64,000 nucleotides of DNA. Origin: Acidimicrobiia bacterium (lineage in GTDB: Bacteria > Actinomycetota > Acidimicrobiia > Acidimicrobiales > JANYDT01). The translations under genes were made by a program, and so were the position numbers. The stretch covers positions 22,726 through 86,725 of the forward strand of contig JANLRD010000224.1 in assembly GCA_031368215.1 (NCBI GenBank), read 5' to 3'. Positions 9,804-39,686 of this stretch are shown here, piece after piece. The notes beneath the pieces are model-generated. The model was not told the origin of the DNA. It worked only from the letters and a program-made list of their open reading frames with translations, and did not search any database. Each line of letters opens with the position of its first letter. The first letter of the stretch is position 1.

Positions 9804-9858
9804 ACCTCACCCGAACATCCAACCCTGACTCTCCAGCACCAGCAAGGACACGATCAAC

Positions 9859-10368: not shown

Positions 10369-10468
10369 CCGATCGGTGACCCGCGTATCGCACGCACCGG
10401 GTCTTGCGGTTTGAGAGAAATCCGGCCGAGTAGGTCATATCGCCTATTGGTCGGCCGATCAGATCTTC

Positions 10469-13841: not shown

Positions 13842-13888
13842 CGCTCGTTCGCGTTCCGCTCCCACCTCACGAACACCATCTCGGGTCC

Positions 13889-14647: not shown

Positions 14648-14662
14648 CACCCGATCTCGACC

Positions 14663-15910: not shown

Positions 15911-16001
15911 AATCCAACCGAAGCGCGCAAGTCGGCGTTCCCGCGGCAGGTGAAGGCCTGTGAAATCCAACCGAAGCGCGCAGGTCGGAGTTCCCGCGGC
16001 A
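15904..16001 (+). repeat. Tandem duplication (53-bp period) of the flhA start region at the flhB/flhA junction
   Basis: 15904-15948 (cctgtgaaatccaaccgaagcgcgcaAgtcggCgttcccgcggca) and 15957-16001 match at 43 of 45 positions. Copy 1 opens an 18-codon mini-ORF (GTG 15907, MKSNRSAQVGVPAAGEGL) whose TGA at 15961-15963 overlaps the flhA GTG at 15960. Confidence 0.9.
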
Positions 16002-18087: not shown

Positions 18088-19509
18088 ATGACCAAGACCC
18101 GGAAGTACGAAGGACGAGACCTCGGCGAGCTGCTCGAGCGCGTCCACGTCGAACATGGTGAGGACGCCAGGATCGTCGGTGCGAACCGATGCCGTTCGGG
18201 CGGCATCGCGGGGTTCTTCGCCGTCGAAAGTTTTGAAGTGGTTGTGGAGATCCCTGATGCCGCGTCGGAGCGGACTGCGAAGCGTCGGGCCCGACGGGTC
18301 GATCGGGCGCACACGGACGGAGAAGGCGTCGTTGCGTCGACGAATGACGCAACGATTGCGAACAGTGGGTCTCGCCGCGCTCGGGTGCGCCCGTCGGCGG
18401 CAGGCGCCCCGACGGCAGTCCCCGTCGGCTCTGATCCCTCACCGGCGCTGAGCGCGCTCGTTGCCGCTGCAGACGCCGCCGAACGTAACGCGTCGCACGT
18501 AGGCCGAGATCGAACGGGTACGTCGAAGGATGACTTCTCCTCGGTCCTCGACCGAGCCGTCGCGCCAGTGTCTCGGGATGGTCGTTTCGGTCGCTGGCTC
18601 GGCGACGCTGAACCCGAGGCGGCCGCGCCGGCCGAGGAGTCGAGCGGGTGGGCTCCCCGGCGCCTCCTCGGCCGACGCAATCGCATCGACCGGAAGCGAA
18701 GCTCGACGCGGTCTACCCGGTCGGATGGCTCCGACGATCGGGTGGTCGACATCGCCGCACTCGAACGAGCCGGGCTCGTCCCCTCGCTGGCGATGCCGCT
18801 GTCAGAAACCGGGGTGAGGCGCCCGGGCGCAATGCGCCGCGTCGACGAAGTGTCCACCGCCGAACTCATCGAGCTGGGCGTCCCTGCACGCTGGTTGCTC
18901 CACCACATCGACGGACAGCTATCCCTCGGCACGGTCCTCGGGAACCTCACGCCACCGCCGACGATGATCACCACGGCGGGGACGACGATTGCCGTTGTCG
19001 GTGAGCTCGGACTCGTCGTCGATGTTGCCCGCGCAATCTCGCTTGCGTTGCGCCAGGATCCTGTGACATGCGTGTTGCTCACCACCGGTCCGCGGCCGGA
19101 GGGCTTCCGCGGCGAGCTCGTCAACGTTATCGACGAGCTCCCTGATCGACGCGAGCAGTGGGCGCGTCGTGCAACCGCAACCGTGGTTGCCGTCGACATC
19201 GGATTCGCCCGCCACGACATCTCGTGGGGTCGGCTTGCCGTCTCCTCCCTTCGCCCGACGATGCGCTGGGGAGCCGTGTCGGCGACCCGCAAGGCCGAGG
19301 ACGTCCGAGCTTGGGCCCGCGGCGTCGGTGGCCTTCACGCGCTTGCGGTCACCGGAATGTCGGAGACGACCACACCGGCAGCGATTCTCGAGGCAGGAGT
19401 TCCCGTCGCCCGCATCGACGGTCAGGTGGCGTCTCGCGAACTATGGCTTCGACTGCTCAATGATCGGCTCGGTGATGCCTCCCGGCTTCCCGATCTCGTG
19501 GCGAACTGA
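18088..19509 (+). CDS. flhF: FlhF-like protein with degenerate SRP-type GTPase motifs
   Basis: 473 aa. ATG at 18088 follows GGAG. The N-terminus (YEGRDLGELLERVHVEHGEDARIVGANR...GFFAVESFEVVVE) resembles the FlhF B-domain. The C-terminal ~200 aa keep the SIMIBI strand order, but G1, G3 and G4 are replaced (IAVVGELGLVVDV, VVAVDIGFA, LAVTGMSET). The gene is in the flhF position. Confidence 0.6.
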   Translation: MTKTRKYEGRDLGELLERVHVEHGEDARIVGANRCRSGGIAGFFAVESFEVVVEIPDAASERTAKRRARRVDRAHTDGEGVVASTNDATIANSGSRRARVRPSAAGAPTAVPVGSDPSPALSALVAAADAAERNASHVGRDRTGTSKDDFSSVLDRAVAPVSRDGRFGRWLGDAEPEAAAPAEESSGWAPRRLLGRRNRIDRKRSSTRSTRSDGSDDRVVDIAALERAGLVPSLAMPLSETGVRRPGAMRRVDEVSTAELIELGVPARWLLHHIDGQLSLGTVLGNLTPPPTMITTAGTTIAVVGELGLVVDVARAISLALRQDPVTCVLLTTGPRPEGFRGELVNVIDELPDRREQWARRATATVVAVDIGFARHDISWGRLAVSSLRPTMRWGAVSATRKAEDVRAWARGVGGLHALAVTGMSETTTPAAILEAGVPVARIDGQVASRELWLRLLNDRLGDASRLPDLVAN

Positions 19510-19566
19510 CAAGCGGCCCTTGCTCGCCTGTCCCGTCTACCGCCATCCCTCTTCCGACGTCGGCCC

Positions 19567-19902
19567 ATGACACCCTTCCTCCGCCTCTCCGTGAGTCTGT
19601 CTCTGACGCTGCTGGTGTGGGCCCCGAACGCCATCGACGAGCTCGGAAGTGGACCCGTCAATCTCGCGGATCTTGCTCTTCGCTTCGTCGTGACGTTCGC
19701 GTTCTTCCGAGCCTCGGTCCGGGGCGTCGCGTACCTTCTCGACTCCTACCGATCATCGGTCCCGGCGTCGAAGGATGTGGTTCCTGCCGCGTCCCCCTCT
19801 CGAGCGCAGATGGTCGAACGACGGACAAGCCGACGACGAACAGATGGTGCGGCCAGCGCCGGGGCCGAACGCGAACTGCCGGCTCTCTCCGACGTCCGAT
19901 AG
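19567..19902 (+). CDS. Hypothetical small protein (hydrophobic N-terminal half, basic tail)
   Basis: 111-aa ORF 57 nt after flhF with no recognisable motif. It is the only sizeable ORF on the + strand here, continuing the strand of the preceding flagellar operon. Confidence 0.3.
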   Translation: MTPFLRLSVSLSLTLLVWAPNAIDELGSGPVNLADLALRFVVTFAFFRASVRGVAYLLDSYRSSVPASKDVVPAASPSRAQMVERRTSRRRTDGAASAGAERELPALSDVR

Positions 19903-20249
19903 GGGTGCCGGACTCCACTCATCCGGTCTGCGGAAGCCCTCGGAGTCGGCCGAAATGTGCGGTAGTTGAAAGCTGAATCAGGCCGATGAACTTTCCGTAA
20001 TGGCCAACGGGTCTTCGCGGCAACCGCTTCCCGGCGATTCCGGAGACCATCTCGGCATTCCGCAGCGGAGCGGCCGTTGAATCTTGAGGAATTCGTGAGC
20101 CGAATGGCACGTTCCTTCCTCGGCAAAAGGACAAGCTCGGTGCTACGTTTCCAACCGTTACTCTCCATCAAGGGCGCGACGTTGCTCACCACTCACTGTC
20201 GGACGGCGAAGGCATTGATGCTCACTGGATTCTCCGACCGATTCGGACG

Positions 20250-21839
20250 ATGAGCGCGGCAGCGAGGTTGCGCAGTCTCCTGTCGAACCACGCGGGGTCA
20301 ACTCGCGTGAAACGTGAGGGTCAAGATGACGAGTTGACGGCGATGTCGCGTCTGCACGACCAGAAGACGGCGTTGCTCTACACCGCTTCGCATGAGGTTC
20401 GCGGGTCGCTCCACGGGATTTCCGGGCTCGTTGAACGCCTTCGCGATGAGCCCTCATCGGTGGAGAAGAGTCCGCTCCTCGATGCCCTCGCCGACGCGTG
20501 CAGTGGGCTGCGGTCGACCGTGCAGCAGGTGCTTGACGTCGCCCAGTTGGAAAGTGGAGGACTCCAGCCGAGAGTCGCCGTCTTCGACATCCGCGTGTTG
20601 CTGCGCGAGGTCGGCGCTGTGGTGTCGGGCATTTCCGGTCCTGATGTCGCCGTTCGGACGTCCATTGACGAAGCATGTTCCGTCTTCCGATTCGGTGACG
20701 CCGGTCGGATCAATCAGATCCTCACGAACATCGCCATCAACGGCGCAAAGGCGATGCAGCGCGGGGTCCTCTCTATTCATGTCGGCGAGCTCGCCGACGG
20801 TGTGGTGCGATTCATTGTGCGGGACGAAGGTGATGGCATGCCGCCGTTTGCCCGCTCACGACTCATCGCTCAGTCCGTCGACGGGAACGTTCTGCGTCCC
20901 GATCGGCGTGAGCGCTCCGGGGACCGTCGATCGAACGGCGGTCTCGGATTGCTGATTGCCCGAGAGTTGATCGAATCACTCGACGGTCGGGTCGACGTGA
21001 GCGTCGAGCGCGGAGCTGGGACCACGGTGCACATCGATCTCCCCCTGCCCGAGCGTGCCAGTCAACAACGGCCGATCGCCGAGCCCGACCTCGAGTTGTC
21101 CATCAAGCGCGCCCTCATCGTGGATGATGCGCCGGAGGGGCTTCAGTTCCTCGCCCACTCCCTCGACACCATCTGCCAGAACTGTGACGCGACCATCGAC
21201 TCGGAAGAGGCTCTGGCGCTGGCCCAGAGCGAACCGTACGACCTCGTGATCCTTGATGGGATGATGTCACCGCACGACGGTGCTGATCTCTCGCGGGCGC
21301 TGCGGCGGTTCGAGACCACCCGCAACAGCGTGATCATCGTCGCCACGGGGAACGTCGAGAGCGTGAGTTCGGCCCGTTACCTTGCGGCTGGTGCCGACCT
21401 CGTCATGGTCAAACCGTTTTCACGACTCGAACTGGTGCGGGCGGTGCGTCGAACGATGGCGCTTCGGTCGGCCGAGGCGGCGGGACTCGTCATCGACCTT
21501 CGGCCGATCGATGCCGACGAGGGGTCGACGCCGATCGTTCAGCCATCCGACGTCTTCTCGGCGCCCCTGACGGTGTTCGACTCGCTTCTCGAGGGCAGGT
21601 TGCAGGCGATCCGAGACGCCTTCGAACGCCGTGACGCAAGCGCCTTCATGCGCGCTGCGCACACGCTCGGCTCGCCGGCCGTCGTGCTCGGCGTCGAAGG
21701 CCTCGGCCGTTACTGCCTGGCGCTGGAGACGATTGTCAGATCGGTCGGTCTGGAGGGCATTGGCGTCGGTGCCTTTGACCAGCTCGCCTTCCTGGCGGCG
21801 GCGCAGCGCCCGGGCGTCTTCACCACGCCTGCGTCCTGA
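20250..21839 (+). CDS. Cytoplasmic hybrid histidine kinase (HisKA-HATPase_c-REC-HPt) with no recognisable sensor domain
   Basis: 529 aa. The H-box YTASHEVRGSLHGI lies ~45 aa from the N-terminus. The G-box reads GGLGLLIARELIESLDGRV. The receiver domain reads ALIVDDAPEG...YDLVILDGMMSPHDG...LVMVKPF. The C-terminal HPt-like helix reads FMRAAHTLGSPAVVLGVEGL. No TM segment was seen. Confidence 0.85.
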   Translation: MSAAARLRSLLSNHAGSTRVKREGQDDELTAMSRLHDQKTALLYTASHEVRGSLHGISGLVERLRDEPSSVEKSPLLDALADACSGLRSTVQQVLDVAQLESGGLQPRVAVFDIRVLLREVGAVVSGISGPDVAVRTSIDEACSVFRFGDAGRINQILTNIAINGAKAMQRGVLSIHVGELADGVVRFIVRDEGDGMPPFARSRLIAQSVDGNVLRPDRRERSGDRRSNGGLGLLIARELIESLDGRVDVSVERGAGTTVHIDLPLPERASQQRPIAEPDLELSIKRALIVDDAPEGLQFLAHSLDTICQNCDATIDSEEALALAQSEPYDLVILDGMMSPHDGADLSRALRRFETTRNSVIIVATGNVESVSSARYLAAGADLVMVKPFSRLELVRAVRRTMALRSAEAAGLVIDLRPIDADEGSTPIVQPSDVFSAPLTVFDSLLEGRLQAIRDAFERRDASAFMRAAHTLGSPAVVLGVEGLGRYCLALETIVRSVGLEGIGVGAFDQLAFLAAAQRPGVFTTPAS

Positions 21840-21944
21840 CGTTCGCATCTCCGAAAGCCGAACTCAGGACTGCGCGGATCCATTTGGCGGCGACTTCCGC
21901 GGAGCCCTGGCAACGGCGGCGTGCGCGCCGGCCGGCGACGGAGC

Positions 21945-22763
21945 TCAGGAGATGGTGATGTCGGCCCGGATCCGGTAGCCGACTTCACGAATGGTCTGAA
22001 TCAGCCAGCTGGCGCCGATGTCGGTCAGCTTGCGCCGGATGTTCGACATGTGGACCTCGACCAGGTGACTTCCGCCGTGCCACTCGGGGCCCCAGACAAT
22101 CGCCTGGAGATCGGTGCGTGAAACCACGGAGTTCGAGCGCTTGGCGAGCTCGCGGAAGAGTGCAAATTCCGTCCGCGTGAGCTGGGCCGAGAGTCCGCCG
22201 ATGGTGACGATGCGGGCTTGGGCGTCGATACTCAGCGCAGTATCCGCGGGCAGTTCGACGGTCGATGTTCGTGTTCTTGTCGATGGTGGTGCCGACACCA
22301 TCAGCGGAGCCGTGAGCGACAGGCCGGAGCGGTCTGCGGGAGCGCCTGCCGCCAGCTTCGCGGTCGCTTCGCTGCTCTGCTTGCGTCGGGCCACCGAACG
22401 AATGCGCGCCGCGAGTTCGCGCATGGACGCCGGTTTGGTCAGGTAGTCATCCGCTCCGATCGTGAAGCCGACGAGCTTGTCCACTTCGTCGCCTCGGGCC
22501 GAGAGGATGATGATGTGCACGTCGCTGATCTCACGCAGGCGACGGCAGGTTTCGAAGCCATCGATCCCCGGGAGTCCGAGATCCAAGATCACGGCAATCG
22601 GCTGGACGTCGTTGAAGATCTCGAGTGCTCGTTCACCGTCGAGCGCCGTGTCGACGGCAAAGCCTTCGGATTCAAGCGACGTCTGCATGAGCAGAGTCAC
22701 CTCGGGTGCATCGTCGACCAACAGCAGCCGTGGCCGGTCGATTGTCGGGGCGCTTACGCTCAT
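21945..22763 (-). CDS. OmpR/PhoB-family response regulator with an unusually long interdomain linker
   Basis: 272 aa. Receiver domain: LLLVDDAPEV...AVILDLGLPGIDG...DDYLTKP. Winged-helix domain: LTRTEFALFRELAKRSNSVVSRTDLQ...LVEVHMSNIRRKL...IQTIREVGYRI. A ~45-aa S/T/A/P-rich linker joins them. Confidence 0.9.
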   Translation of the reverse strand: MSVSAPTIDRPRLLLVDDAPEVTLLMQTSLESEGFAVDTALDGERALEIFNDVQPIAVILDLGLPGIDGFETCRRLREISDVHIIILSARGDEVDKLVGFTIGADDYLTKPASMRELAARIRSVARRKQSSEATAKLAAGAPADRSGLSLTAPLMVSAPPSTRTRTSTVELPADTALSIDAQARIVTIGGLSAQLTRTEFALFRELAKRSNSVVSRTDLQAIVWGPEWHGGSHLVEVHMSNIRRKLTDIGASWLIQTIREVGYRIRADITIS

Positions 22764-22985
22764 CTGTTTCTACTGTCGCTGGAAGCGCCTTCGTGAAGAC
22801 AGACGCAGGTGGACGTTGCTTGCTCGTCCGTGCGGCCCCGGAGATGTTGGTCCATGAGGACTACGAACAACGTAACGCGAGAACGGCGTCCGGGGTTGGA
22901 TATCGATCACACAAATACGATCAGAGCCTCGCCGAGCCCAGCAAAATCGCTTCGCGATGGAACCTTGGAGGACCAGGGGCACCAG

Positions 22986-25900
22986 CTAGCGCGCCCGGCG
23001 TCGCCTCGACGTGTGCAGAAGAAGGGCTCCACTGGCGCCAAGCGCCAGTCCGAGCATGACGAGCGCTCCGAATTCGGCTCCGGTGAAGGCCAAACGAGAA
23101 CGTACCTCGGTGTCGGGTTTCGGTGTGGTGGTGGTCGAACCGCTTCGGGGCTTGCGCGGCCCGCGACCGGGCTTCGTGGACGGGGACGCAGCGGTCGTGT
23201 CCGCGCTACCCTCGGCGACGGTCGTCGTCGCCCCCGTGTTCGGGGTGAGGCTCGTGGTTGACGCACCACGCGAGAGTTCAGTGGTTGTCGTTGCCGCCCT
23301 GGCTCCGGTCGTCGTCGTGGCGGCCGTCGAGGGCGGAACGATGAACGGGGGACCGAGCAGGTTGAGCAGTCCTGCATCGACGTGGCGGACGTCGCCGAGG
23401 GGAAGGACGACGAGCACGCCGGTGCGGAAGGTCTTCGGATCCACATCAGAGTCCGTCGAGGCGTCACCGATCCCACGCAACGTCACCTTCAGATCAGAGG
23501 GCACATCGAAGGCGACGATGTAGGAGCGGGCCACGATGTCGTCGAAGAGGTAGGAGCCGTCCGCGCCGCTGACGACGGTGAGAGGCGAACCGTCGACTGC
23601 CAGCACTGGAGTGCCATCGGGGTAGAGGAGACGTGCAACCACGCCGGAGATTCCCGGCTCCCCCGTTCCCTGTCGACCGTCGCCTGTCGTGGTCCCGTCG
23701 TTCCAGACGCGTCCTCCGAGACTGCCCTTCGGTTCGAGCCCGGCGTCGACGTCGGAGCGGTCGAGCCCCGAGACGAGGACAACGTCAGCCGCGTGAGTCA
23801 CCGGATCGATGTTGGAGTCGATGAGCGCGTTGGTTCCGCCGCCGGTCGGATCACCAGCGGCAACCCCTTGAGGTGAGTGTCCGTAGCGAGGCGGCGGGTT
23901 GATCACGATGCGGGCATTGCCGGGCGCGACCCCCACGAACAGGTAGGCGCCCGCACCATCCGTCGTTGTCGTCGTAATGCGGTCGTCTGCCGTGCCGAAG
24001 AGACCGTCGGGACCGGCATGGCGGAGCGTCACCGTGACGTTCCCGACGGGCGGCTCTCCGGCGTCCTGCATGCCATCGAGGTCGTCGTCACGCCAGACGT
24101 AGTTGCCGATGCTGATGGGCGTGTAGAGACCACCGTCGACGTCGCGGTCATCCGAGGTCGTGGATACCAGATCGATGTTCGCCCGGAGCTCGAACGACGC
24201 CGTGGAACCGTTGGCCGTGGCATCGGAGTCGGTCGCCCTGGTGCCGGCGGCCACAGTGGTCGCGGTGGCAACCATTCCTGGCTTCGCGAAGGTCACGGTG
24301 TAGTTGCCGGGCCGCAGGGTGTCGATGAGCCACCCGCCTGCGGATCCGGCTGTCGAGGACGTAATGGTGCTGCGACTGACCACCGCGCCACGGTCGTCGA
24401 TCCCGGCGAGGGTCACCGAGACGCCGTCGATGCCGGGCTCGCTGGGGTCCTGGATGCCATTGCCGTTGAGGTCGTCCCATACCCGGTCGCCCACGGCGAC
24501 GGGTGCGAGTTCACCGAACCGTCCGACCGGTGTCTGTTCTCCTGGAGCGAGGACGACGCCGCTCACGACGTCGTCGCCGATCGTTCCGTGCACCGATGAC
24601 GTGTCGAGTCCGTCCATCCAACCTGCGGGCTGGCCCTCGGTCACGGTGTAGCCGGTGGCATCGGACGCGAGGAGGTCGAGGAACGAGTACGTACCGTCGC
24701 TGAGTGTCGTCGCCGTGCGGGTGACGGCGTTGTTCGCCCGGTCGTTGCCCGTGAGCGTGATTGTCACGCCGGCGATACCGGGTTCACTGCTGTCCTGTAC
24801 TCCGTTGTTGTTGGCATCGGAGTACACCGTGCCGATGATGGCACCGAGCGTCTCGCCGAAGTTGACGCCCGTCAGGCCGGTTGCCGGAACCGTGAGCGAG
24901 GTCAGCGTGTTCGGGGTCGACGATCCGTAGTTGAGAGGTTGGATCTCCTCGACGGTGTAGGTCCCCGGGGCGACGTTCGGGAAGCTGTACGAGCCGTCCC
25001 CGAGTGTCGTGGTCCGAGCGACTTCCGCTCCGTTCGAGTCCCGCAACACGAGTGTCACGCCGAGCACCCCAGGCTCACCGCTGTCCCGGACACCGTTTGC
25101 GGTGAGACCATCGGCGCCGCGGTCCACGAAGACCACGCCGGAGAGCGTCGTGGTGACGGCTGCGGACGGTACCCGTTCACCGAAGGTGTACCCGGTTGCC
25201 TGGACGTCGAGCGGCAGGCTTATGTCGACAATCACATCGTTGCCGACTCCACCCCCGGCGGTGCCCGCGGCGTCCTGTCCATCGGACCATCCGGATGGCT
25301 GGGTTTCGGTGAGGGTGTAGACACCGGCGGGGAGATCGGTGAAGGCGTAAGACCCGTCAGGCGAGGTGGTCATCGTGCGGGTGACGGCATTTCCGGCAGC
25401 GGTCGTGCCGTTCAACGTCACCGTGACACCGCTGATGCCCGGCTCCGCCGGACCGACGACCGACGTCCGTCCACCGCTACCGTCGACGTCGTTGTACACC
25501 GATCCGGCGATCGACGACAGCGTGTCGCCGAAGTCGATGTCCGAGACTCCGCCGCTTGCCGGTGCGGTGATCGCTTCGGTGTTTGTCGAGCGCAGCGATG
25601 AACCGAAGCCGACCGGCTGCACCTCGGTCACGGTGTACGACGCGCCCGGCGTGAGGCCCGTGAACAGGTAGGTGCCGTCGGCGCCCGTCATCGCCGTGCC
25701 GATGAGGGCTCCGGTGCCGTCGCGCAACTGCACGGCCACCCCGACGATGACGCCGTCGCCGGGTCCTGCGCTGGAGTTCCGATCCCGATCGAGGAAGACG
25801 GTGCCGCGGACGAAGACCGTCGTCGGCAGGGTTTCCTGCTCGCCGAAGAGATGACCGGACGAGAGGCCACCGGGGGTGACCACGATCGCCGTGATGGTGT

Positions 25901-28900: not shown

Positions 28901-31900
28901 TTCCGGCGGTGTCGCGCCCGTCGGCGTAGGACGGCGGTTGCGTCTCGACGACGGCGTACGTCCCGCTCAGCAGGTCGGTGAACGTCCACGCCCCGGACGC
29001 ATTGCTCACCGTCGTGCGGCTGACGGTGCTTCCACTCGCATTGACGCCTGACAGCGTGATGGTCACGCCGGAGATCGGCGTCTCGCCGGCATTGCGCGCT
29101 CCGTTGTCGTTGGCATCGACGTAGACGAATCCCGAGATGGTCGAAACCGTGTCGCCGAAGTTCTGTCCCGTCACACCGGTGGCCGGTAGGCCGTTGACGG
29201 CGATCGCTGTTGGGTTCTGGCTGCGTCCGAATCCGGTCGGGGTCACCTGGTCGATGCGATAGTCCGCGCCGGAAACGAGGTTGTCGAATCGGTACGAACC
29301 ATCGCTTCCGCTCGTCGTTCTGGCGATCTCGTCGCCCGATGTGTTTCGGAGGACGACGACAACGCCGGCCAAAGGGTCGTCGACTCCGGCGTCGCGAACT
29401 GCATCGCGATTGCGGTCGAGGTAGACGCTTCCGCTGATCGACACAGTCGAGCTGATCTCACCGAAGTCGTATCCGGTTCCGTTGACACCGACGCCGACGG
29501 TGATCCCGGTCACGGAGTCCGTGCCGATGCCGTTCCCGGGGCGCGTTCCGCCGAGCGTGCCGATGGCATCGCGCCCGTCTCCGTACCCGATGGGCTGGGT
29601 CGGCTCCGTGACCGTGTAGACGCCCGCAATGAGTCCGTCGATGCTCCAGGAACCGTCGACCGACGTGGTTGTCGCGAGGTTCACCGAACGACCGTTGACG
29701 TCGATGCCGGTCACGCGGATCGTGATGCTGCCGATCGGCTGCTCGCCCGAGTCGAAGATTCCGTTGTTGTCGGCATCGATGAAGACCCGACCGGCCAACG
29801 TGGAAGTGGTGTCGAAGAAGTCCTGTCCCGAGAGTCCACCAACGGGTGCCGTGACGCTCCGCGTGTTCGGTGAAGAACTGCCATAGCCAATCGGTTGTGT
29901 CTCGGTGACCGAGTAGTCGCCGACCGGAATACCGGAGAACGAGTAGTTGCCGTTCACGTCGGTGGCGGTCGTGGCAACCACTGCTCCGCTGGCATCGCGC
30001 AGCGTGATGGTCACCCCGGCGATCGTCCCGTTCTCTCCGGTGTCCCTCGCGCCGTTGGTGTTCGGGTCGACGCGAACCGCACCGCTGATGGAGGTGTAGG
30101 CGACCGGGGCGAGCGGCTTCTCACCGAAGAGATTGCCCGTCGACGTCGTGCCCGATGCGATGGTGACACCGCCGATCTGGTCATTCGTCGTTGTCGTACC
30201 GCCGGCGGTCCCGGCCCGTTCGGCGCCATCGAGGTACGACGCCGGCTGGGTCACTTCGGTCACCGCGTAGGTACCGGGACGCAGGCCGGTGAATGCGAAG
30301 CTGCCATCGGACGCGGTCGTCGTCGCGCGGTTGACGGTGTTGCCGAGATCATCGGATCCGTTCAGCGCGATCGAAACCGTGGCGATGCCGGGCTCGCCGA
30401 CCTGCCGGTTCCCGTCACCCGTGATGTCCACGTACACGGAGCCGGCGATAGAGCCGGGAACGAGCTCGCCGAAGTTGTTGCGCGCCGAGTTCGTCGACGA
30501 TCCGACGACGATGCCGGTGAGCACGTCGCGTGTGGGGATCGGGCCGCCGAGCGAACCACCGGCGGACCCGACGGTGTCGCGACCGTCGATGTAGCCCGCA
30601 GGCTGTGTCTCGGTGAGCGTGTAGCCGGCCAGGTTCGATGCTTCGAGACCGGTGAACTGGTAGTAGCCGTCGGCACCGGAGGTCACCGCGCTCGTTCTCG
30701 ACGTTCCGAACACGTCGACTCCGGTCAAGGTGATCACCGCACCCACGATCGGGGCTTCGCCCGTGTCACGGACTGCGTCGTTGTCGGCATCGACGTAGAC
30801 GTAGCCGGAGACGATCGGAAGATTCACGATGCCGGCGTCGATGGTGAGATTCACCTCTCCGGAGCCGAGCGTGGTGGAGCCGGAGATGCCACTCGTCTTG
30901 TTGAGATCCGAATCAGCGGTGTTGGATCCGACGTTCGCCACAGTCAGCGTGAACCCGGAAGGGGCGTCGATGCGGATCCGGTAGATGCCGGGAACGAGGC
31001 CGTCGAAGCGATAGTTGCCCGTTGCGTTGGTGAGCTGGGTGACGGGGTCGCCGGATCCGTCGAGTATGGGCGTCCCGGCGGTGTCGAGGAGACGGACGCG
31101 CACGTTCGCCACGCCCGGTTCGCCGATGTCCTGCACGCCGTTGCCGTTCAGGTCTTCCCACACGCGATCGCCGAGGATGACAGTGCGGAAGAAGCCGGTG
31201 TCGACATCGGTCGGCGACTGTCCGCTCTGCAGCGTGAACGGCGGGGTCATCCCGGTCATGACCGCAGCGTCGGAATTCGTCGCCGCGGAACCTCTCCCAA
31301 CCGGCGACGGCGTCCAACCCGATGGGGCGGCGAAGTGGACGCGGTACGTTCCGGGGACAAGGTTGTCGAACACATAGGCACCGCCGCCCGACGTGACCGT
31401 CGTGCGGACCACCGAGGCGCCCGCGAGGAGCTCCACGGTGATGCCGTCAAGACCGGGTTCGCCGCTGTCCTGGATACCGTCGGCGTTGGTGTCATCCCAG
31501 ACTCGGTCCCCGACGGAGGCGGCGGCGAAGAACCCGGCGTCGATGTGTGTCGTGGTGACACCGTCAGGCACCGAGAAGACCGCAGTGCGGCCTGTTGCGA
31601 GGTCCGCGTCGGAGTCGATCCCGCTGGCGCGCGGACCGGTCGACGACGCCGGTGATGGAAGGTACCCGGAGGGACGGACGAACTCGACGCGATAGTCGCC
31701 TTCACGGAGGAGCGCACCGCTGTTGTCGAGCCCTGCCCGGGTGAAGGAATAGGTCCCATCGGACGCCGTCGTCACCGTCGCGATGACCGCGGCCGAGCTG
31801 TTCAGGAGTCGAACGGTGACGCCCCCGATCCCGGTGGTCTCGGTCAGCTGGCGGGTCCCGTCGGCGTTCGTGTCGTCCCACACCTGGTCGCCGATCACGA

Positions 31901-34900
31901 CGCCGCGGAAGAGGCCGGCGTCGACGGTCGAGTTGGTCTCGCCGGAGACAACCGAGACCAATGCCGTGGCACCGGTGGCATCCGCGTTCGAGTCCGTCGA
32001 CGTTGTGGCTCCGCCGGTCGTGGCGGTCTGATCGGTGAACACGTAGCCGTTGGGTGCCGTGACCAGAACGCGGTACGTCCCGGGTCGAAGGTTCGTGAAC
32101 GAGTAGTTGCCGTTCGCATCGGTGGTCGTGGCGTTCACCAACACACCCGATGCGTCGAGCACCGGATTGCTCGAAACGTCGACAAGGCGAACCGTCACTC
32201 CGGCGATGCCGTCCTCGCCCGCCGTTTGGATGCCGTCGCCGTTCGTGTCGTGCCACACGCGGTCGCCGATGGTGGCCGGGCGGATGAGCCCGGTATCGAC
32301 CGTGGTGTTGGCCTCGTTCGACCTGAGTGTGGTCGACGGCGATGCCCCCGACGGATTCGCGTCGGAGTCGGTGGTGTCTGTCGCAGTGGAGACGTCGCGG
32401 AGGGTCACGACCATGCCGCTCGGCGGGGTCACCGTGACCACGTAGACACCCGGCACCACATTGGCGAACTGGTAAAGACCGGTGCCGGCCGCAGTCGTCG
32501 TCGTGGGCGGGGTGATGACGACACCCGCACCGGTCGTTCCGGTCAGCGTGACCGTCGCTGCGCCAACGCCAGGCTCGCCGACATCCTGCGCTCCGTTCCC
32601 ATCGGTGTCCTCCCAGACGTAGTTCCCGATGGACGCGAACCGGTAGTAGCCGGCGTCGAATCCGGTGTCATTCACCCCGGAATCCACGGTGATCACGGGG
32701 GTGATTCCCGTGACGACATCGGCATCGGAGTTCGTCGCAGGAGCTCCGAAACCGGTCGGTGTGGGCTGCCATCCGGCTCCCGTCGGGGCGGTGAACGCAA
32801 TGCGGTAACTCGCTGGGCGGAGGTTGGCGATCGACCAGAGTCCGGAGCCGTCGGTGGTCGTGGTGACCGGGACGGTGAAGGACGCGCCGGTGGCGTCGAG
32901 CAACTCCACGGTCGCCCCGGAGATGCCCGGTTCGCCGGAGTCCTGGATGCCATTGGCGTTCAGGTCTTCCCACACGCGGTCGCCGACCGTGGCGCGCTGG
33001 AACATGCCGGCGTCGAGGTTTGTCGTCGTCTGCCCTTCGGTGAGCGTGATGGTTCCGGTGCGCCCGAAGGTGGGTCCGACGGTCGTCGACGCGTCCGAGT
33101 CGGTGTCGCTCGACAGGGGGGCGGCGGCGCTTGCCGTCGTGAACTCCCAGCCGATCGGCAGGCCGAACGTGACCTGGTAGGCACCGGGGGCGAGGAGTGC
33201 ACCCGAGTTGTTGATGCCGGCCCGCGTGAACGTGTAGATCCCCGATGCATTCGTCGCGGCCGAACCCGTGACGTCGTCGGCCGTGCCGAACGTGGCGTCC
33301 AGACCGGCACCGAGCAGAGCTGCAGTCGCACCGTTCACGCCCGCGGTCTCGGTCCCGCTTCGCGTCCCGTCGGCATTGGTGTCGACCCACACCTGATTGC
33401 CGATGCTGACCGGTCGGGCCATGCCGACGTCGATCGTCTGCTCCACTGTTCCCGACGTCAGGGTGATCAACGCCGTCCGGTTGGTGGTGGTGTCGACGTC
33501 GGAATCCGTTGCCGGCGTCGCACCGTTGATGGTGACGAGCGCCGGTGTGAGCTGGTACCCCGACGGTCGCGTCACCACAACGACGCGGTAAATGCCGGGC
33601 GACAGATTGGTGAACGCGTATGCGCCGGAGCCCGTCGTCGTCTGGTCAGAAATGGAGGTTCCCGAAGCATCGATGGCCCGGACGCCGAGGGCATCGACGA
33701 GGCGGAGCACCGCGCCGGCCACACCATTCTCGCCGGTGTCGCGGACACCCGAGCCGTTGGCGTCGACCCACACCAGATCACCGACCGACGAAGTCCGGTA
33801 CATGCCGCCGTCCACGGAGTTGTCGGTCTGATCCGAGATGAGCGTCACCGGATCGGAGACACCGGTCGCCCGGGTGATGTCGGAGTCCGTGAGATCGGTA
33901 GCGGATGCCGAATTGAGGATGGTGAAGGCCCAGCCCGAGGGCTTCACGATGCCGATCCGGTAGGTACCGGGAACGACGCTGCCGAAGGTGTAGATGCCGC
34001 CGCCGGCGGTCGTCGTCTGAATCGGGAGTCCGGCGTTGAGGACCGGGTTGCCGCTGTTGTCGAGCAGTCGAACCGTGACACCGTCGTTGCCGTCGTCGCC
34101 GCCGTCTCGCACGCCGTTGCCGTTCGCGTCTTCCCATACGAGGTCGCCGAGCGTTGCGTACTTGTAGAGACCGGCGTCGATGGTGAAGTCGTCCGTGCCC
34201 GAGACGACCGCGAACGTCGCGGTCATGCCGGTCGCCGGGTTGGGGTTGCTGTCGGTCGCCGCGGATCCCGCGCCGGTCGGGCTGAAGTTCCAGCCGGCAC
34301 CCACCGGAGGCGTGAACTTGACCCGGTAGTCGCCGGGTCGGATGTTGGGGATCGTCCAGGCGCCGAACGCATCGGTCGTTGTGGTGATCGGCACCCCGAA
34401 CGATGCGCCTGTCGCATCGAGCAATTCCACGCCGACGGCGCTGACCGGAGGTTCGCCGACGTCTTGGACTCCGTTGGCGTTGAGGTCCTCCCACACGAAG
34501 TTGCCGAGCGTGACGCGCTTCCACACGCCGGCGTCGACGCTGATCGTTGCCTCGTTCTCGTTCATCGTGAACGTGGCCGTCATACCGGTCGTCTCGTTCG
34601 CATCGCTATCGGTGTTCGACGACTTCGGTGCTCCGACGGAAGCGGGAGAGAACTCGTAGGTCGCCGGGAGGGAGAATGTCAGCCGGTAGTCACCGGGGGG
34701 CAGTGCGGCGCCCGTGTTGTTCACACCGGATTTCGTGAACGAGTACGCGCCGCCGGCAACGGTGGTCATCGATCCTGCGATGTCGTCCACGGTTCCGAAG
34801 ATCCCGTCGAGACCGGCGCCCTCGAGGGTCACGGTCGCCCCGCTCACGCCCGCCGTGTCGGCAGCGTCGCGCGTGCCGTTGGAGTTGCGGTCGATCCACA

Positions 34901-37900
34901 GTCGGTCGCCGATCGTCACTGCACGAAAGAAGCCGGCGTCCACGGTGTTGTTGGTCTCGCCGGGGATCACGCTGACGCTGGAGGAGCGACCGGTTCCTGC
35001 GAGCACGTCGGAGTCGACGGTGTCGTCGCCGAGACGATCATTCGGACTGAGCGTGTAGCCGACGGGAGGTACGACTCGAACCTGATAGGTCCCGGGTGGG
35101 AGTGCACCGAAGGAATACGCGCCCGTGGATGACGTGAGCTGGGTGACAACGGTGTTCCCCAGGCCATCGGCGACGGGGAGGCCGTTCACGTCGGTGAGGA
35201 GGACGTTCGCTCCGGCCAGACCTGTTTCGCCGACGTCCTGGATGCCATCGGCGTCGGCATCGACGAACACGAAGTTGCCGATGACCGCAGGCTCGTAGAG
35301 GCCGGCATCGACCGTGATGATGTTCTCGTTGGACAGCACCACGAAGCGCGCCGTCTGGCCGCTTGCGATCAGGGCATCGGAGTCCGTGTCGGAGGTGAGG
35401 GGTGTCGCGACTGCCCGCGGCGAGAAGTACAGCCCGGGAGGTCGGGTGAACACGATCTGATAGCCGGTCGCGTTCGACGGCATCAGGTCGTCGATGACGT
35501 AGGCACCGGTGAGCGGGTCGGACGTGGTCCCCCGGTTGACAGCGTTGCCGAGGATGTCGGTGCCGGACAGCGTGACCGTGACCCCGCCGGGGAGGACCAG
35601 CCCGTTGTCGCCGGCGTCGCGGACACCGTTGCCGTTCACGTCCTTCCACACCAGATCACCCACCTTCGAGAGCGGGTAGACGGTCCGTGACGCGGTGGTG
35701 TTCGGGGTGATGACGCGGATGTTGGGATTCGAAGGGTTCGTCGGCAGCGTGCGGTACTCGGTGAGGGTGACGGTGTTGGTGAGGCCGGGGGTGAGCAGCG
35801 GCGACGGAGTGACCGGGGTGTCGACGGTCGCGGTGTAGCGGATCTTCTTCGAGCTTCCCGGAGCGATCTCATCGATCTGTGCACTTAGCGTCTGGCCGGT
35901 GAACGATGCGCTGTCGGGGCCGGTGACGGCCGCGCCGTCGATCAGGATGCTGGCCGGGTTGGGGGTGAGGTTGACGGGGACGACGTCGTTCGCCTTGACC
36001 TCGAAGGCTTTGCCGGTCCCGGTGTCGGCGAGCGTGATCTCATAGGTGACCACATCACCGGGGAGCACACCCTGTTGCGGCACGCGCGCCGGTGATGTCA
36101 ACGCGATCGCCTTCGCGATGGTGACATTCGGGACGGTGACGTTGACGACGGCGTTCGCCGACGTCCGCTCGACCGGAATGCCACCGATGGTGGGACGCGA
36201 AGAGAACGAGGCCGTGTTGATGATGTCGGAGCCGTCGACGTTGCCGACGACATCGGCGACGACAGCGTCGACGTCGAGCGTCAGCACTGCCGTCTCGCCG
36301 ACGGTGCTCGTGTTGTCGAACGGGTCGACGACAGCAACGTCGATCGCGTTGCCGCTGCCGCTCGTCGCGACAAGGTTCCCGGCGGTGATGTCGGTCGCAC
36401 CCCGCTCGAGCTTCGCGGTCCACGTGACGTTCGTGAGGTTGGTCGGCACGGTGTCGAGGACGTGCGCATCGATCAGTTTCGTGCGCGGGAGGTCCACCGT
36501 GATGCGGTACTTCACCGGATCGCCAATGCGGACATCGGGGAGGCATCCGGATCCGACACACGTCGGAAGGGTGACCGTCTTCGTCGGGGTCGGGGTGACG
36601 ACGGTGACCGATACCGTGTCGTTCAGGATGGCGCTGACGTTCGACGTCCGGGTCGTGTCGAGGTTCGAGCTCGGGACATAGGTGAAGGTGCCCGCAGCGG
36701 TGTTGATCGGGTTCTGGTAGCTGGTGATGCCCGCCGTGTTGGTCTCGACGGCTCCGGAGTTCACCGTGTCCGGGATGGCCACGCGGTAGCGCAGCGTGAC
36801 CGCCGGGCTGACGGCGGGACTCACGGCAACGGTGGGTACCGTCCACTCGATGTGCGGGAACGGAGCGGCAACGCAACTCCCGCCGGCGGTGATGGAAGCG
36901 GAGACCACGTCGGCACACGTGATGGCCAGGGGCGTGCTCGGGAGGCGGTCCCAGACCGTCACGGTTTTCGCCGCGATGTCACCGGTGTTGTGGAGATCGA
37001 TCCGGTACGTGACGTGGTCGAAGGCCTGCACCGCGATGCCGTCGCCCTGATCCGGCCCGGTCGAACTGAACACGGCGGAGTAGTCACCGGGATAGACCGG
37101 GCTGGCGTTGGCGGGACGCTCGACGGTGTCCACGCCTTTGCGGACCTTGGGGAGCGGCATTGACCACACGATGCCGGTGTTCACCCGTTGCGCGAACACC
37201 TGTCCGGCGGTGTTGACGGAGGTGAGCTTGAGCAGGTTGTCGGTGAGGTCGCCGGCCGTGGCGGTCTCGGGGTTCACGAGTTCGACGGCGACGGTCACCT
37301 CGAACGTCTCGCCGATGTTGTCGATGCTGCCTATCGACCACTCGAGCGTTCCCCCGCCGTCGGTCAGCGAAACACCGGACACGTCGGGCTCGGGAGAAGC
37401 GGCGACCGGCGCGGTGGCGGCCGGAATGGTCACGGTGTTGGCCGCCGTCGTGCGAGCCGAACCGGGGATGTATCGCATCCCGTTCGGCAGGAAGTCGGTC
37501 ACCTTCACGCTCGACGCGGAGATGTTCACGGGCACGAACGCCCGCAGCTTGAAGCACGCGATGTCGCCGGTGGCGTAGCCGCCCGTGCTCGTTGATGTGT
37601 AGGCGACTGTTCCCGCAGCGCAGTTGACACCGACGGCACTCGACACCGCCATACCGTTCGGGAGCGAAGACCGGATCGCTACCTTCTTGTCCAGTTGGAC
37701 GCTGATCCCCGCAACGCCGGCGCTCGCATCGTCCTGAATGGACTGGCCGTCAGCCTGGCCACCGAGTTCGTTTCCGGGAGCGGGGTCGCCGGGGGCCTCC
37801 TTTTCGATCTGCCCGTTCACGTAGGAGTAGTTGGTGAAGTCGTCGTTGGTGAGGACGGCTTGGCCGTTCTGGTACGTCGGACGGACTCTCGACGTGAACG

Positions 37901-39479
37901 TCACGACCACCGTTGCGTTCGGCGGCACCGACGCGAGCGCCGGCACGACGGTCGAGTCCCACGTGACGGCATAGGTTCCGTCGCCGCCGAGCGTCACGCT
38001 CGCGTAGAACGGTGAGTTCACGACGACAGGAGTCCCGTTCACGGTGATCACGGGAACGTTTCCGGAGGTGCAGTTGGGGTCCGCCGGGATGGGCATGCCT
38101 TCCGGGCAGGTGCCGTTCGGGAGGCGATCGGTGATCGTCATGGCGTTGATGCGCCGGTATTCGCTTGTTCGTGTCGTCAACGTGCTCGTGATCAGTGCGG
38201 CGTGCACGACACTGCCGGATGCCGACTTGTCCATCGCGAGGTCCTCGGCCTGGAAGGAGGTCGACGCGGTGTCGCCGTAGAACGTTCCCGCTCCGAGGAC
38301 CCGGGGTCCGCTGTAGCTGGCACCCGAGCTCGCCGAGTTCGTGCCGACCTGTTCGGCCCCGTCAGCGAGGGTCGACGGGGCGACCTGCGCCTCCTCGGTC
38401 CATGGACCGGTGTTGTTGTTGAGGTTGGCGCCCTGCAGCCCGCTCGCCGGTGTCGGAACGATCCCCACGAACGGTCGGTTCTCATGCAGCGGGATGCCGG
38501 CGCGATAGGTGATCGTCTGGGTGCCACCGGCGGCGAGCTGGGAGCCCGGACCGGTCGCCGGGAACGTCCAGCGAACCCACGTGGTGCCGATCGGCGGCGT
38601 GAACAGGGCGCCGGCCGCGCTCGTTACCGGTGTCGAACCGTTCATCGTCATGATGCTCACCGTGGGGCTGCCGAGCGCGCCGACGTATTGGCAGGCGCTC
38701 GGGCTGAGACGAGGTGAACCGGTGTATTCGAGGGCGCCGGGCGCGGTGTTGTCGGTCGTGGTGCAGCCGAGCAGTTCGAGACTGGGGGGAAGGAAGTCGT
38801 CCACCGTGAAGGCACCGGTGGGGGCGATCGAGTTGTTCTCGATGGTCAGGGTGAACGACGTCGAGTTGCTGTGCACGCCCCGGAGCAGTTCACCGCCTCC
38901 GGACTTGCGCAGCTGGTACGGGATGACCGTCGTGTTCACCGATCCGCTGGTCCCCGAACCCGGGGCCGTCGACGAGTTCACCGTGCCGTTGGCGAGGAAC
39001 TTGACCAGTACCCGGGGATCGGTGTTCGAGTACGCCTGAGCCGTCGTGGCGAAGACACTGCCGACGGGATGGGTGACCGGATCCACGGCGACGCTGACGC
39101 TGATCGACTGGCACACGTTGGTCTGGAGGTCGCTCACGTTGTTCCACACCAGCGTCGTCTCTCCCGGCGCGGGACTGTTCGCGTAGATCACCGGTGCGGT
39201 CGCGGTCCCGCTGGTGCTCACGTGGGAGAGGCCGGCCGGCAGGACCTGGCGGAAGGTCAGGTTGTAGGTGTCCGGGCCGAACGGATTGCACGCACGCAGC
39301 GTGTAGGAGACGTTTCCCCCCTGCAGGACCCGGCCTGTTCCTCCGAGGACCACCGACAGCGTCGGCGCCGCTTCAACACGCATCGCCGGGCCGACGACGA
39401 GGCCGGTGAGCAGCACGAGGGCAGCCGCAAGCAACCGGCGGACGCGTTTGCCGGGCGACAGAGTGCTGAGCAGTGACAT
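22986..39479 (-). CDS. Giant (5,497 aa) cell-wall-anchored surface protein/adhesin: signal peptide, DUF11-like repeats, 35 SdrD-B/Cna-B-like modules, LAFTG sorting signal
   Basis: One uninterrupted ORF. The N-terminus [29 protein letters not shown] looks like a signal peptide. The first ~1,270 aa are DUF11-type segments (e.g. [48 protein letters not shown]). The tandem ~97-139-aa modules begin (V/I/L)G(D/N)xVWxDxNxNGxxDxGE or (S/A)GxV(Y/F)xDxxxxG. The C-terminus is RLAFTG plus a hydrophobic helix plus RRRRAR. Confidence 0.9.
   Translation of the reverse strand: [5497 protein letters not shown]
23079..23093 (-). other. LAFTG (LAxTG-type) sortase recognition motif of the giant protein
   Basis: The codons ttg gcc ttc acc gga were read directly. 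They are followed by [21 protein letters not shown] and HTSRRRRAR, the classic tripartite cell-wall sorting signal. LAxTG is the motif used by class E (actinobacterial housekeeping) sortases. Confidence 0.8.
23352..24494 (-). repeat. Module block A14-A16 of the giant protein (aa 4996-5376): return to A-type modules
   Basis: Three modules of 128, 130 and 123 aa, beginning [41 protein letters not shown] and [23 protein letters not shown]. Confidence 0.75.
24495..30812 (-). repeat. Module block B1-B19 of the giant protein (aa 2890-4995): 19 related modules of two length classes
   Basis: Long modules (114-128 aa) contain TETQPxGYxDGxDxxGTxGG...I.....(Y/L/F)xFGE. Short modules (97-106 aa) contain [13 protein letters not shown]....L.VP..G....NFGET. 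The order is L L S L S L S L S L S L S S L S L S L. Confidence 0.8.
30813..35663 (-). repeat. Module block A1-A13 of the giant protein (aa 1273-2889): 13 SdrD-B-like modules of 113-139 aa
   Basis: Module boundaries were counted by hand from the translation. Each module has GDxVWxDxNxNGxQDxGExG...G.Y.F..L.PG.Y.V...P.G......DSD...T......D.G. From module 3 onward the sequence relationships recur every four modules. Confidence 0.8.
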
Positions 39480-39639
39480 GACGGCACGTTCATCGTCAAC
39501 CCGAGATCCCCGCTGAAGGCCCTTCCTGGGTCGAACGGACGAGTCCGCTGGTTCGATCGGCCCATGGTGCGGCCCTCAACGGCACACGATGGCTCGGCGA
39601 ACGTTTCCAACGGGGGAAGTCCCCCATTCGCCTCAAATT

Positions 39640-39656
39640 GACCACGCATCGTGGTC
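39640..39656 (-). terminator. Candidate hairpin after the methyltransferase gene, upstream of the giant gene
   Basis: GACCACG-CAT-CGTGGTC, a 7-bp stem, followed on the - strand by AATTTGAGG (a short, weak U-tract), 31 nt after the stop at 39687. Confidence 0.3.
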
Positions 39657-39686
39657 TCATGCGTCCCGTCAGCGCGGTGAGTGTTG

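Follow-up and report, generated by a model that had tools for sequence, protein, structure and literature searches.

Does a phosphorelay encoded between a flagellar operon and the gene of a giant surface protein connect swimming with attachment, or does it merely lie next to both? This question is raised by a stretch of 64,000 nucleotides (nt) from an Acidimicrobiia bacterium (GenBank assembly GCA_031368215.1, contig JANLRD010000224.1, positions 22,726 to 86,725), which we call the window and whose overall GC content is 66.1%. A first-pass annotation had described five consecutive elements in it: the end of a flagellar operon, a small open reading frame (ORF) with a gap of lower GC content, a hybrid histidine kinase, a response regulator and a giant wall-anchored protein. 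It had also proposed that together they switch between motility and attachment. Examination with Pfam and inspection of the sequence found every one of these elements in place. As to the proposed link, the flagellar association is strongly supported (12 of 12 lineages), but the adhesin link is weak and no shared operator could be validated.

The picture which we favour, tentatively, is that of a lineage-specific four-step phosphorelay of uncultured Acidimicrobiia which is associated with the flagellum and which, in the branch of the window, lies beside a giant fibre gene and probably controls it. The parts of this picture are not equally firm. A functional tie of the relay to the flagellar system is likely, and the giant gene as a direct target of the regulator is a possibility to be taken with reserve. 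The robust result of the gene-order comparison is the tie of the kinase–regulator pair to flagellar genes, which holds down to 40% kinase identity and through at least one rearrangement.

A convergent phosphorelay pair among flagellar genes

The kinase gene (20250-21839, + strand) encodes 529 amino acids (aa) in which Pfam recognises HisKA (residues 39-103), HATPase_c (149-267), REC (289-400) and HPt (447-498) domains. Residue conservation was followed in 17 orthologs with 93-37% identity. The HisKA domain (PF00512, 35 bits) carries an invariant H48 within the sequence SHEVRG. In the HATPase_c domain (PF02518, 58 bits), N160/N164, D192-G194-G196 and the G231-L-G-L (GLGL) motif are invariant or nearly so. 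The internal REC domain (PF00072, 60 bits) retains D292/D293, T366 and K388 throughout and D336 in 16 of the 17 orthologs, and the HPt domain (PF01627, 29.7 bits for a cutoff of 24.6) has an invariant H471 in AHxLGS. Judged by these features, the protein is a cytoplasmic unorthodox hybrid histidine kinase, HisKA(H48)-HATPase-REC(D336)-HPt(H471). It has every residue needed for the predicted autophosphorylation of H48 and the subsequent transfer to D336 (REC) and then to H471 (HPt).

No transmembrane (TM) or other hydrophobic segment was detected in the kinase (maximum KD19 value 1.39), Pfam finds no sensor domain, and only 38 residues precede HisKA. On these grounds the earlier description of a cytoplasmic, sensor-less HisKA-HATPase-REC-HPt kinase is upheld. 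Orthologs with at most 51% kinase identity possess around 230 additional N-terminal residues which score as PAS (PAS_8 24.5 bits in L106, above the cutoff; PAS_8 20.3 bits in L011; PAS 19.2 bits in L010). Because these deep-branching orthologs keep an N-terminal PAS domain, the sensor-less state is derived. A remnant of a PAS domain or of an mcp gene was looked for in the gap 5′ of the kinase gene and none was found.

The regulator gene (21945-22763, − strand, 272 aa) converges on the kinase gene across a gap of 105 nt (21840-21944) and lies 222 nt (22764-22985) 3′ of the giant gene. Its matches to PF00072 (89 bits) and PF00486 (Trans_reg_C, 66.6 bits) place it in the OmpR/PhoB family, in agreement with the annotation of a convergent OmpR-type regulator downstream of the giant gene. 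In an alignment of 10 orthologs D17/D18, D61, K110 and the winged helix are kept. The two domains are joined by a variable, low-complexity linker of approximately 60 aa, which is absent in L010 and L011. The regulator reaches no single NCBIfam equivalog cutoff, its best scores being those for CreB, RpaB, MtrA and CseB. Neither an AAA+ nor a Sigma54_activat domain was found with Pfam and NCBIfam, hence it is not of the NtrC type. The kinase is presumably its cognate partner.

The PAS-bearing branch of the relatives encodes a further protein of 267-296 aa after the regulator (L011, 7849-8652; L106, 4555-5445). Its gene is divergently oriented. Within the protein Pfam recognises a Trans_reg_C winged-helix domain only, and response-regulator models align with its N-terminal region weakly and in part. 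The relay may have a second output factor in this protein.

How far does this arrangement extend beyond the window? The neighbourhoods of kinase orthologs were collected and, separately, flhA neighbourhoods independent of the kinase, with one genome per species. Genes were located in both sets by means of tblastn and Pfam, and 12 related lineages were covered. The related loci are metagenome-assembled genomes or metagenome contigs of Acidimicrobiia/Acidimicrobiales; most are short and many are broken inside the giant gene. When metagenome contigs were scanned with the kinase alignment, the 80 matches obtained were generic hybrid kinases (22-36% identity), none of them an ortholog.

In every one of the 12 lineages the kinase gene and the regulator gene are direct neighbours which converge on each other, and flagellar genes flank the pair in all 12 as well. 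In ten lineages this flank consists of flhA, the divergent flhF described below (flhF′) and the small ORF; in one it consists of flgN, flgL and csrA with insertion sequence (IS) genes, and in the most distant one of fliA/whiG. The window (kinase 100%), L001/L015 (kinase identity 86-88%), L013, L014 and L004 (82%), L012 (67%) and L006 (66%, with an mcp gene in addition) show flhA–flhF′–small ORF upstream of the kinase and a giant gene with SdrD_B repeats after the regulator. The same upstream block is present in L005/L016 (80%) and L105 (55%), whose contigs end inside the regulator gene. It is also found in L008/L009 (55%), where a 195-aa ORF and then a giant gene with Calx-beta repeats follow the regulator. 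L011 and L106 (both 45%, with PAS) show it too; there the regulator is followed by a gene with Trans_reg_C only, which in L106 is followed by argS, and there is no giant gene. L002/L003 (80%) have IS genes (rve, IS110) with flgN, an flgL fragment and csrA on the kinase side and a methyltransferase gene on the regulator side, with no giant gene. Lastly, L010 (40%, with PAS) has a FliA/WhiG sigma factor gene (TIGR02479, 190 bits) upstream of the kinase and a glycosyltransferase gene after the regulator, again with no giant gene. Contigs of relatives show the arrangement again, with kinase identities as low as 45%; it is more than chance.

Both genes of the pair are preceded by conserved non-coding DNA. 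In alignments of 6-10 loci, the region 5′ of the kinase gene (19960-20249, + strand) is conserved more strongly than the flanking coding sequence; a 2-nt indel and the lack of a start codon mark it as non-coding. It contains the 20-nt block GGTAGTTGAAAGCTGAATCA (19960-19979) and a conserved stretch of approximately 170 nt (20081-20249) which includes TCTTGAGGAATTCGTGAG (20082-20099). A −10-like element, GTGCTACGTTTCC, is located at about 20141-20153 and is followed by a leader of some 95 nt. The region probably represents the kinase's own promoter and 5′ untranslated region. In L002 (4291-5430) and L003 (1-1050), rve/IS110 transposase genes lie directly 5′ of the kinase gene and replace the first half of this conserved leader.

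The region upstream of the regulator gene (22764-22900, − strand) is conserved over approximately 120 nt. It comprises a −10-like element, GCGTTACGTTG, and the 15-mer CCGGGGCCGCACGGA (22827-22841, − strand), which does not vary in 8 of 9 loci and occurs only once in the window. This 15-mer is kept even in loci with a regulator protein identity of only 71-78%, and also in one locus without the giant gene. As the upstream region persists in L002, which has no giant gene upstream, the regulator is predicted to have its own promoter and would not be a mere passenger of the adhesin transcript. The strong conservation of both leaders implies that both genes are regulated and under selection.

The nature of these leaders was explored further. 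At gathering thresholds Rfam has no family in the window, and the matches in the kinase leader are at chance level. RNAalifold gave weak structures with almost no covariation for both conserved leaders, and we claim no riboswitch or other RNA element. A sigma-70 consensus scan of the gaps detected no promoters, and convincing terminators were not found there either. A sigma-28/WhiG-like box noticed by eye at 19949-19989 was dropped, as it is not conserved in relatives.

The divergent FlhF and the end of the flagellar operon

The 3′ two-thirds of the flagellar operon occupy positions 9-18005 (+ strand) and every gene has a Pfam match. The window start falls within fliI (9-1331), which is followed by fliJ, a hydrolase gene with SLT and NlpC/P60 domains, fliK, flgD, flgE, flbD, motA and motB. 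After motB come fliL, fliM, fliN, fliO, fliP, fliQ, fliR, flhB and flhA (15960-18005, + strand). The annotated extent of approximately 19.5 kb stands, with the FlhF-like gene last and ending at 19509. The equally annotated absence of flhG and fliA after the operon stands too: no window ORF scanned with Pfam or NCBIfam matches FlhG or FliA. The hydrolase between fliJ and fliK (1783-3759, + strand) combines NlpC/P60 and SLT lytic transglycosylase domains in one fused protein of 658 aa. It presumably has a peptidoglycan-remodelling, FlgJ-like function in a monoderm flagellum.

The gene directly after flhA (18088-19509, + strand, 473 aa) had been called an atypical FlhF-like gene. Pfam has no match for its product, SRP54 included, and in NCBIfam the FlhF model TIGR03499 matches the N-terminus only (29.1 bits for a cutoff of 174). 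A profile built from 12 orthologs weakly matches the N-terminal FlhF fragment in PDB entry 9en1. Structure prediction was more informative. In the AlphaFold model, which is based on 32 homologs, residues 250-470 form a C-terminal domain with pLDDT values above 90. The best PDB match of this domain in Foldseek is FlhF of S. putrefaciens (8r9r, E-value 3.5e-7), and the next matches are the NG domains of SRP54/FtsY and FlhF of B. subtilis (2px0). Model and structural matches together assign the NG-domain fold of SRP GTPases to the C-terminal domain. The predicted protein is thus built from an FlhF-type N-terminal motif, a long disordered linker and an NG-like C-terminal domain.

The nucleotide-binding site is a different matter. 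At the P-loop position the protein reads VVGELGLVVD instead of the G1 consensus GxxGxGK[ST], and G305 is the only residue which is invariant there across 12-32 homologs. We therefore consider the protein, on the strength of its model, a divergent FlhF and, because of this degenerate P-loop (GELGLVVD), probably a pseudo-GTPase. The earlier designation is thereby sharpened: the family score is 29 bits for a cutoff of 174, FlhF 8r9r is the top structural match and the P-loop is replaced. Compared with the FlhF proteins in 8r9r and 2px0, the gene position after flhA, the N-terminal FlhF motif and the NG fold are alike. In contrast, the window protein possesses neither a P-loop nor an FlhG partner, does not reach the TIGR03499 cutoff and contains the long disordered linker. 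FlhF was scored absent from Acidimicrobiia in a published survey (PMC10746217). An identical FlhF-like protein is encoded on a 115-kb NCBI/Logan contig. Homologs which match only its N-terminal part also occur in Cellulomonas (P0111, P0114).

The place of an FlhG partner is taken by a small ORF (19567-19902, + strand, 111 aa), the next gene after flhF′, which has no match in Pfam or NCBIfam and whose N-terminal half is hydrophobic. The gap behind it (19903-20249, 347 nt) has a GC content of 59.1% versus 66.1% for the window, so that the annotated small unknown ORF and lower-GC gap are both recovered. The FlhF-like gene follows flhA in 15 of the 15 related loci which show that side, including loci without the kinase. 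Likewise, tblastn places the small ORF always 3′ of the FlhF-like gene in L001-L019, lineages without the kinase included. The FlhF-like gene and the small ORF, which trail flhA in every related locus showing that side, are both part of the flagellar operon.

The giant wall-anchored protein as a candidate target

The giant gene (22986-39479, − strand) encodes 5,497 aa. Its upstream (promoter) region, 39480-39686 (− strand), was read from the sequence, and beyond it lies a SAM-methyltransferase gene recognised by Pfam (39687-40676, − strand), which serves as synteny anchor. The protein begins with a signal peptide (MSLLSTLSPGKRVRRLLAAALVLLTGLVVGPAMRVEAAP) and continues with a β-sandwich head (residues 39-570), one SdrD_B-like repeat and a DUF7619/DUF11 region. 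Then follow 35 contiguous SdrD_B repeats (1271-5371), a Thr/Pro-rich tail and the sequence LAFTG with a TM segment and RRRRAR; the C-terminus directly before the stop codon reads RLAFTGAEFGALVMLGLALGASGALLLHTSRRRRAR. The SdrD_B repeats, 36 in total, form a tandem Ig-like stalk, and tandem repeats at the DNA level are absent from the gene. The N-terminal signal peptide and the C-terminal LAxTG/TM/positive tail provide a sorting signal which is conserved in 7 related loci. The annotated 16.5-kb gene of an LAFTG-anchored giant protein is therefore genuine in all its parts. In Actinobacteria, the substrates of class E sortases carry the motif LAxTG (PMC8225981, PMC13251363). The window ORFs scanned included no recognised sortase gene.

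Less can be said about the head (37770-39365, residues 39-570). Its AlphaFold model is poor (mean pLDDT 61) and finds generic Ig-like β-sandwich matches only, with TM-scores of about 0.2 or less. Four homologs are detectable among 5.8 billion clustered proteins. The closest one, in L024 (61% identity), adjoins a membrane-transporter-like gene, and a metagenome-contig scan with the head gave no matches. The head appears to evolve or to be shuffled much faster than the stalk and the anchor. By its predicted architecture, the description as a fibrillar adhesin-like surface protein is justified; that it is an adhesin in the strict sense we infer. The likeness is to sortase-anchored fibrillar adhesins such as SdrD of S. 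aureus, covered in surveys (PMC8286594, PMC9210967), which share the signal peptide, the SdrD_B/Cna_B-type stalk and the sorting signal. Unlike SdrD-type adhesins, the giant protein is of extreme length (5,497 aa, 36 repeats) and has a head in which no adhesive domain is recognised.

The first-pass annotation had asked for co-conservation of the pair and the giant gene with the flagellar genes. This holds for the pair, which accompanies flagellar genes in 12 of 12 lineages, but the giant gene follows the regulator in only 7 of the 10 lineages in which that side is visible; it is missing in L002/L003, L011, L106 and L010. The SdrD_B relatives (L001/L015, L004, L006, L012, L013, L014) are 63-82% identical in their C-terminal parts, and their contigs all end inside the repeats. 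The seventh giant protein, with Calx-beta repeats in L008, is not orthologous and has no similarity to the C-terminal 499 residues of the window protein at E<1e-8. All seven end with LA(F/L)TG, a TM segment and poly-Arg (LALTG in L008). Every giant-gene lineage lies within the PAS-less subclade, where 7 of the 8 visible lineages have a giant gene beside the regulator.

This last proportion, with its one non-orthologous replacement, is what would be expected if the pair were a cell-envelope or adhesin two-component system with no flagellar tie, placed here by inherited gene order. OmpR-type regulators often control envelope genes, which fits as well. We nevertheless consider this explanation improbable. 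The flagellar neighbourhood survives rearrangement in L002/L003 and in L010, and flagellar flanks extend to loci in which the giant gene is absent and the kinase is 40-45% identical. Furthermore, the kinase gene is on the flagellar strand, directly 3′ of the flhF′–small ORF(–mcp) block.

L002 and L003 look like a natural rearrangement mutant of the locus. There, the regulator gene directly abuts the methyltransferase–PRTase–hydrolase block which in the window lies beyond the giant gene. A search of L002 for a scar left by deletion of the giant gene showed alignment only over roughly the 150 nt next to the regulator gene.

A shared operator was also looked for. The 11-mer ACGTTTCCAAC occurs in the kinase leader (20141-20153, + strand), where it overlaps the −10-like block, and in inverted form as GTTGGAAACGT at about 39555-39566, 5′ of the giant gene; its chance expectation is roughly 0.03-0.1. 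In addition, the regulator leader has 9-mers in common with the DNA 5′ of the giant gene. The chance expectation of such matches is about 0.03-0.35 each, and both kinds are unreplicated and serve as leads only. Apart from these matches, none of the conserved leader motifs occurs a second time in the window. Footprinting of the giant-gene promoter failed: the sole usable relative with the head, L024, is in another context and its upstream DNA does not align.

Several observations weigh against the reading which we favour. The search just described validated no operator common to the giant-gene promoter and the leaders of kinase and regulator, the shared 9-11-mers being unreplicated. From the gene arrangement, control of the fibre gene by the pair is no more than plausible. 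The head of the fibre protein (39-570) has no Pfam match and no recognised adhesive domain. The giant gene is absent while the regulator is kept in L002/L003, L011, L106 and L010, so the regulator must have other targets. The loss of PAS and the presence of the giant gene map to a single branch; they are effectively one event, and the giant gene in the PAS-less subclade counts as one evolutionary observation. On the flagellar side, the operons of L017, L019 and L018 end with flhF′–small ORF and have neither kinase nor regulator within 8-10 kb downstream, which means that flagella can do without the pair in this place. Their FlhA proteins are 83-84% (L017/L019) and 70% (L018) identical to that of the window, and the operons continue with mcp, CoA-transferase genes or flgN-flgK. 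The kinase-bearing lineages with FlhA 90-97% identical are close relatives, hence part of the conserved order is plain synteny. Finally, the regulator is by its domains OmpR-type and not of the NtrC/sigma-54 type of the known flagellar checkpoints.

Taken at face value, the close relationship of these kinase-bearing lineages, the patchy presence of the pair (missing in L017, L019 and L018) and of the giant gene (missing in L002, L011, L106 and L010), and the lack of a validated shared cis-motif suit a juxtaposition which has no functional meaning. The pair would then be a generic, orphan-like phosphorelay with an unknown cytoplasmic cue, held in place by shared ancestry in a narrow clade, while long repeat genes accumulate in poorly constrained gaps. 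We give this little credence. It does not account for a flagellar neighbourhood which is kept while kinase identity drops to 40-45%, for an adjacency which was kept or regained despite an IS rearrangement and which also exists in another flagellar setting, next to fliA, or for the strongly conserved non-coding leaders of both genes.

A more serious competitor, still rather unlikely, keeps the flagellar tie and drops the fibre. The pair would serve solely as a checkpoint of flagellar gene expression, a Gram-positive equivalent of FlgSR/FlrBC/FleSR, and the giant gene would be an unrelated neighbour inserted at a permissive site. The sensor-less kinase would detect the completed export gate or basal body near FlhF, and the regulator would turn on rod, hook and filament genes. 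Known flagellum-associated kinases are cytoplasmic, have or lack PAS and co-occur with FlhF (PMC7064773). The flagellar flanks in 12 of 12 lineages, which include fliA/whiG in L010 and flgN/flgL/csrA in L002, agree with such a function, as do the persistence of the pair without the giant gene and a conserved regulator promoter region independent of that gene. Points of difficulty are the same operon end without the pair in L017, L019 and L018, the OmpR-type regulator, which is no sigma-54 activator, and the non-orthologous giant LALTG protein at the same site in L008. Owing to the latter, a giant gene as pure bystander is hard to reconcile with the data.

Under the favoured reading, by comparison, the sensor-less kinase would be driven by the state of the flagellar machine, through assembly of the export gate or basal body as in FlgS/FlrB/FleS. 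Alternatively, stalled rotation could be the cue, as in DegS, or the input could be regulated expression from the kinase's own conserved leader. The phosphoryl group would pass from H48 to D336, to H471 and on to D61 of the regulator. Once phosphorylated, the regulator would alter how strongly the giant adhesin gene, and perhaps late flagellar genes too, are transcribed. In this way the production of a wall-anchored fibre would be tied to flagellar status. A decision module between swimming and sticking is something we infer. In its boldest form, the kinase would have given up a small-molecule or redox cue, and with it the PAS domain, and would now sense the flagellar machine itself (for instance by way of the FlhF-like pseudo-GTPase, the small membrane ORF or the basal body); the regulator would switch a wall-anchored fibre, probably longer than 100 nm, on or off. 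The locus would then be a self-contained 'swim or stick' circuit in which PAS loss and adhesin gain were one evolutionary step; this version we regard as quite improbable.

Some history of the locus can be proposed. In a neighbour-joining tree of FlhA (no support values), the kinase-bearing L011 groups with the kinase-less L017/L019, which suggests that the association of the pair with flagellar genes is ancestral and was later lost in L017/L019. Orthologous mcp genes (67% identity) follow the small ORF in L006 (6992-8458, kinase present) and in L017 (14032-15480, kinase absent). On account of this orthology, the ancestral order was probably flhA–flhF′–small ORF–mcp–kinase–regulator. The clade of the window has no mcp gene, which was lost without detectable remnant.

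Elsewhere in the window, a 43-aa ORF (48851-48982, + strand) ending in ...IDGMCGVY has the signature of a mycofactocin precursor (MftA). It is situated between a GT2 glycosyltransferase gene (47272-48750, − strand) and the gene of an AMP-binding enzyme. The latter is listed as an ORF at 48894-50645, which overlaps the MftA-like ORF, so it probably starts later. The same trio is present in L002/L003, where the small protein is annotated as PF23709 MftA. Neither mftB nor mftC was seen among the window ORFs scanned.

Relation to known systems

To our knowledge, almost nothing is known about flagellar regulation in Actinomycetota outside Actinoplanes. The locus offers two candidates which homology searches miss: the divergent FlhF-like pseudo-GTPase, a fixed part of the operon, and the flagellum-linked unorthodox phosphorelay. 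Regulatory genes as yet unknown are expressly left out of account in a survey which argues for the completeness of its list of flagellar components (PMC10746217). If the relay reads flagellar status, the principle of the flagellum-associated two-component system would extend from Gram-negative polar flagellates to a monoderm phylum, with different parts (an HPt relay and an OmpR-type output). If it also controls the giant LAxTG protein, the locus would be a compact case in which motility and attachment are coupled. Should both conditions fail, it is ordinary synteny in a narrow clade.

The closest functional parallels are FlgS/FlgR of Campylobacter and Helicobacter, FlrB/FlrC of Vibrio and FleS/FleR of Pseudomonas. 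Their kinases are cytoplasmic, either with PAS (FlrB, FleS) or with no recognisable sensor (FlgS), and co-occur with FlhF; they respond to the assembly of export gate, MS ring and rotor (PMC7064773, PMC3760246). A cytoplasmic, TM-less kinase and the genomic link to FlhF and the export apparatus are shared with the window system. A cytoplasmic kinase encoded with FlhF and flagellar genes, the mark of this group, is found in 12 of 12 lineages, with the FlhF-like gene and small ORF upstream in 10. The PAS domains of FlrB and FleS correspond to those in the deep orthologs, and the sensor-less FlgS corresponds to the kinase of the window clade. However, these Gram-negative systems combine a simple histidine kinase with an NtrC-type sigma-54 activator. 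The window system instead has an unorthodox HPt kinase, an OmpR-type regulator, a monoderm host, no FlhG and an FlhF with a degenerate GTPase site.

DegS of B. subtilis is a cytoplasmic kinase which is activated when flagellar rotation is blocked and which drives sessile behaviour (PMC3963450). DegS–DegU thus resembles the window system as a Gram-positive system with a cytoplasmic kinase devoid of a sensor domain, and the motile-to-sessile logic is the one proposed here. Unlike the window kinase, DegS is of the HisKA_3 type; its regulator is NarL-type and the transfer takes two steps. Moreover, DegS–DegU is not encoded at a flagellar operon, has no sortase-anchored giant target and shows no sequence-level relationship to the window proteins.

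Two further comparisons concern the architecture of the relay. CckA–ChpT–CtrA of Alphaproteobacteria is likewise a His-Asp-His-Asp relay which ends in an OmpR-family regulator of flagellar genes; in contrast, CckA is membrane-bound with PAS and the HPt function resides in a separate protein, ChpT. The regulator scores 104 bits with the CtrA model in NCBIfam, no better than with many other OmpR-family models. ArcB, TorS, BarA and EvgS have the same HisKA-HATPase-REC-HPt order, whereas they are membrane proteins with periplasmic or PAS input, mostly from Proteobacteria, and the window kinase is soluble. The best partial NCBIfam matches of the kinase, TorS (149.7 bits for a cutoff of 676.5) and ArcB (116 for 838), and the other scores in this group are far below the equivalog cutoffs (676-1995 bits); with no TM segment or sensor, the kinase does not belong there. 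Judged by its domains, the window system is a member of neither the FlgSR/FlrBC/FleSR nor the DegSU family. By analogy, it is best read as a flagellum-associated two-component system which is composed of other modules and occurs in a monoderm class not studied so far.

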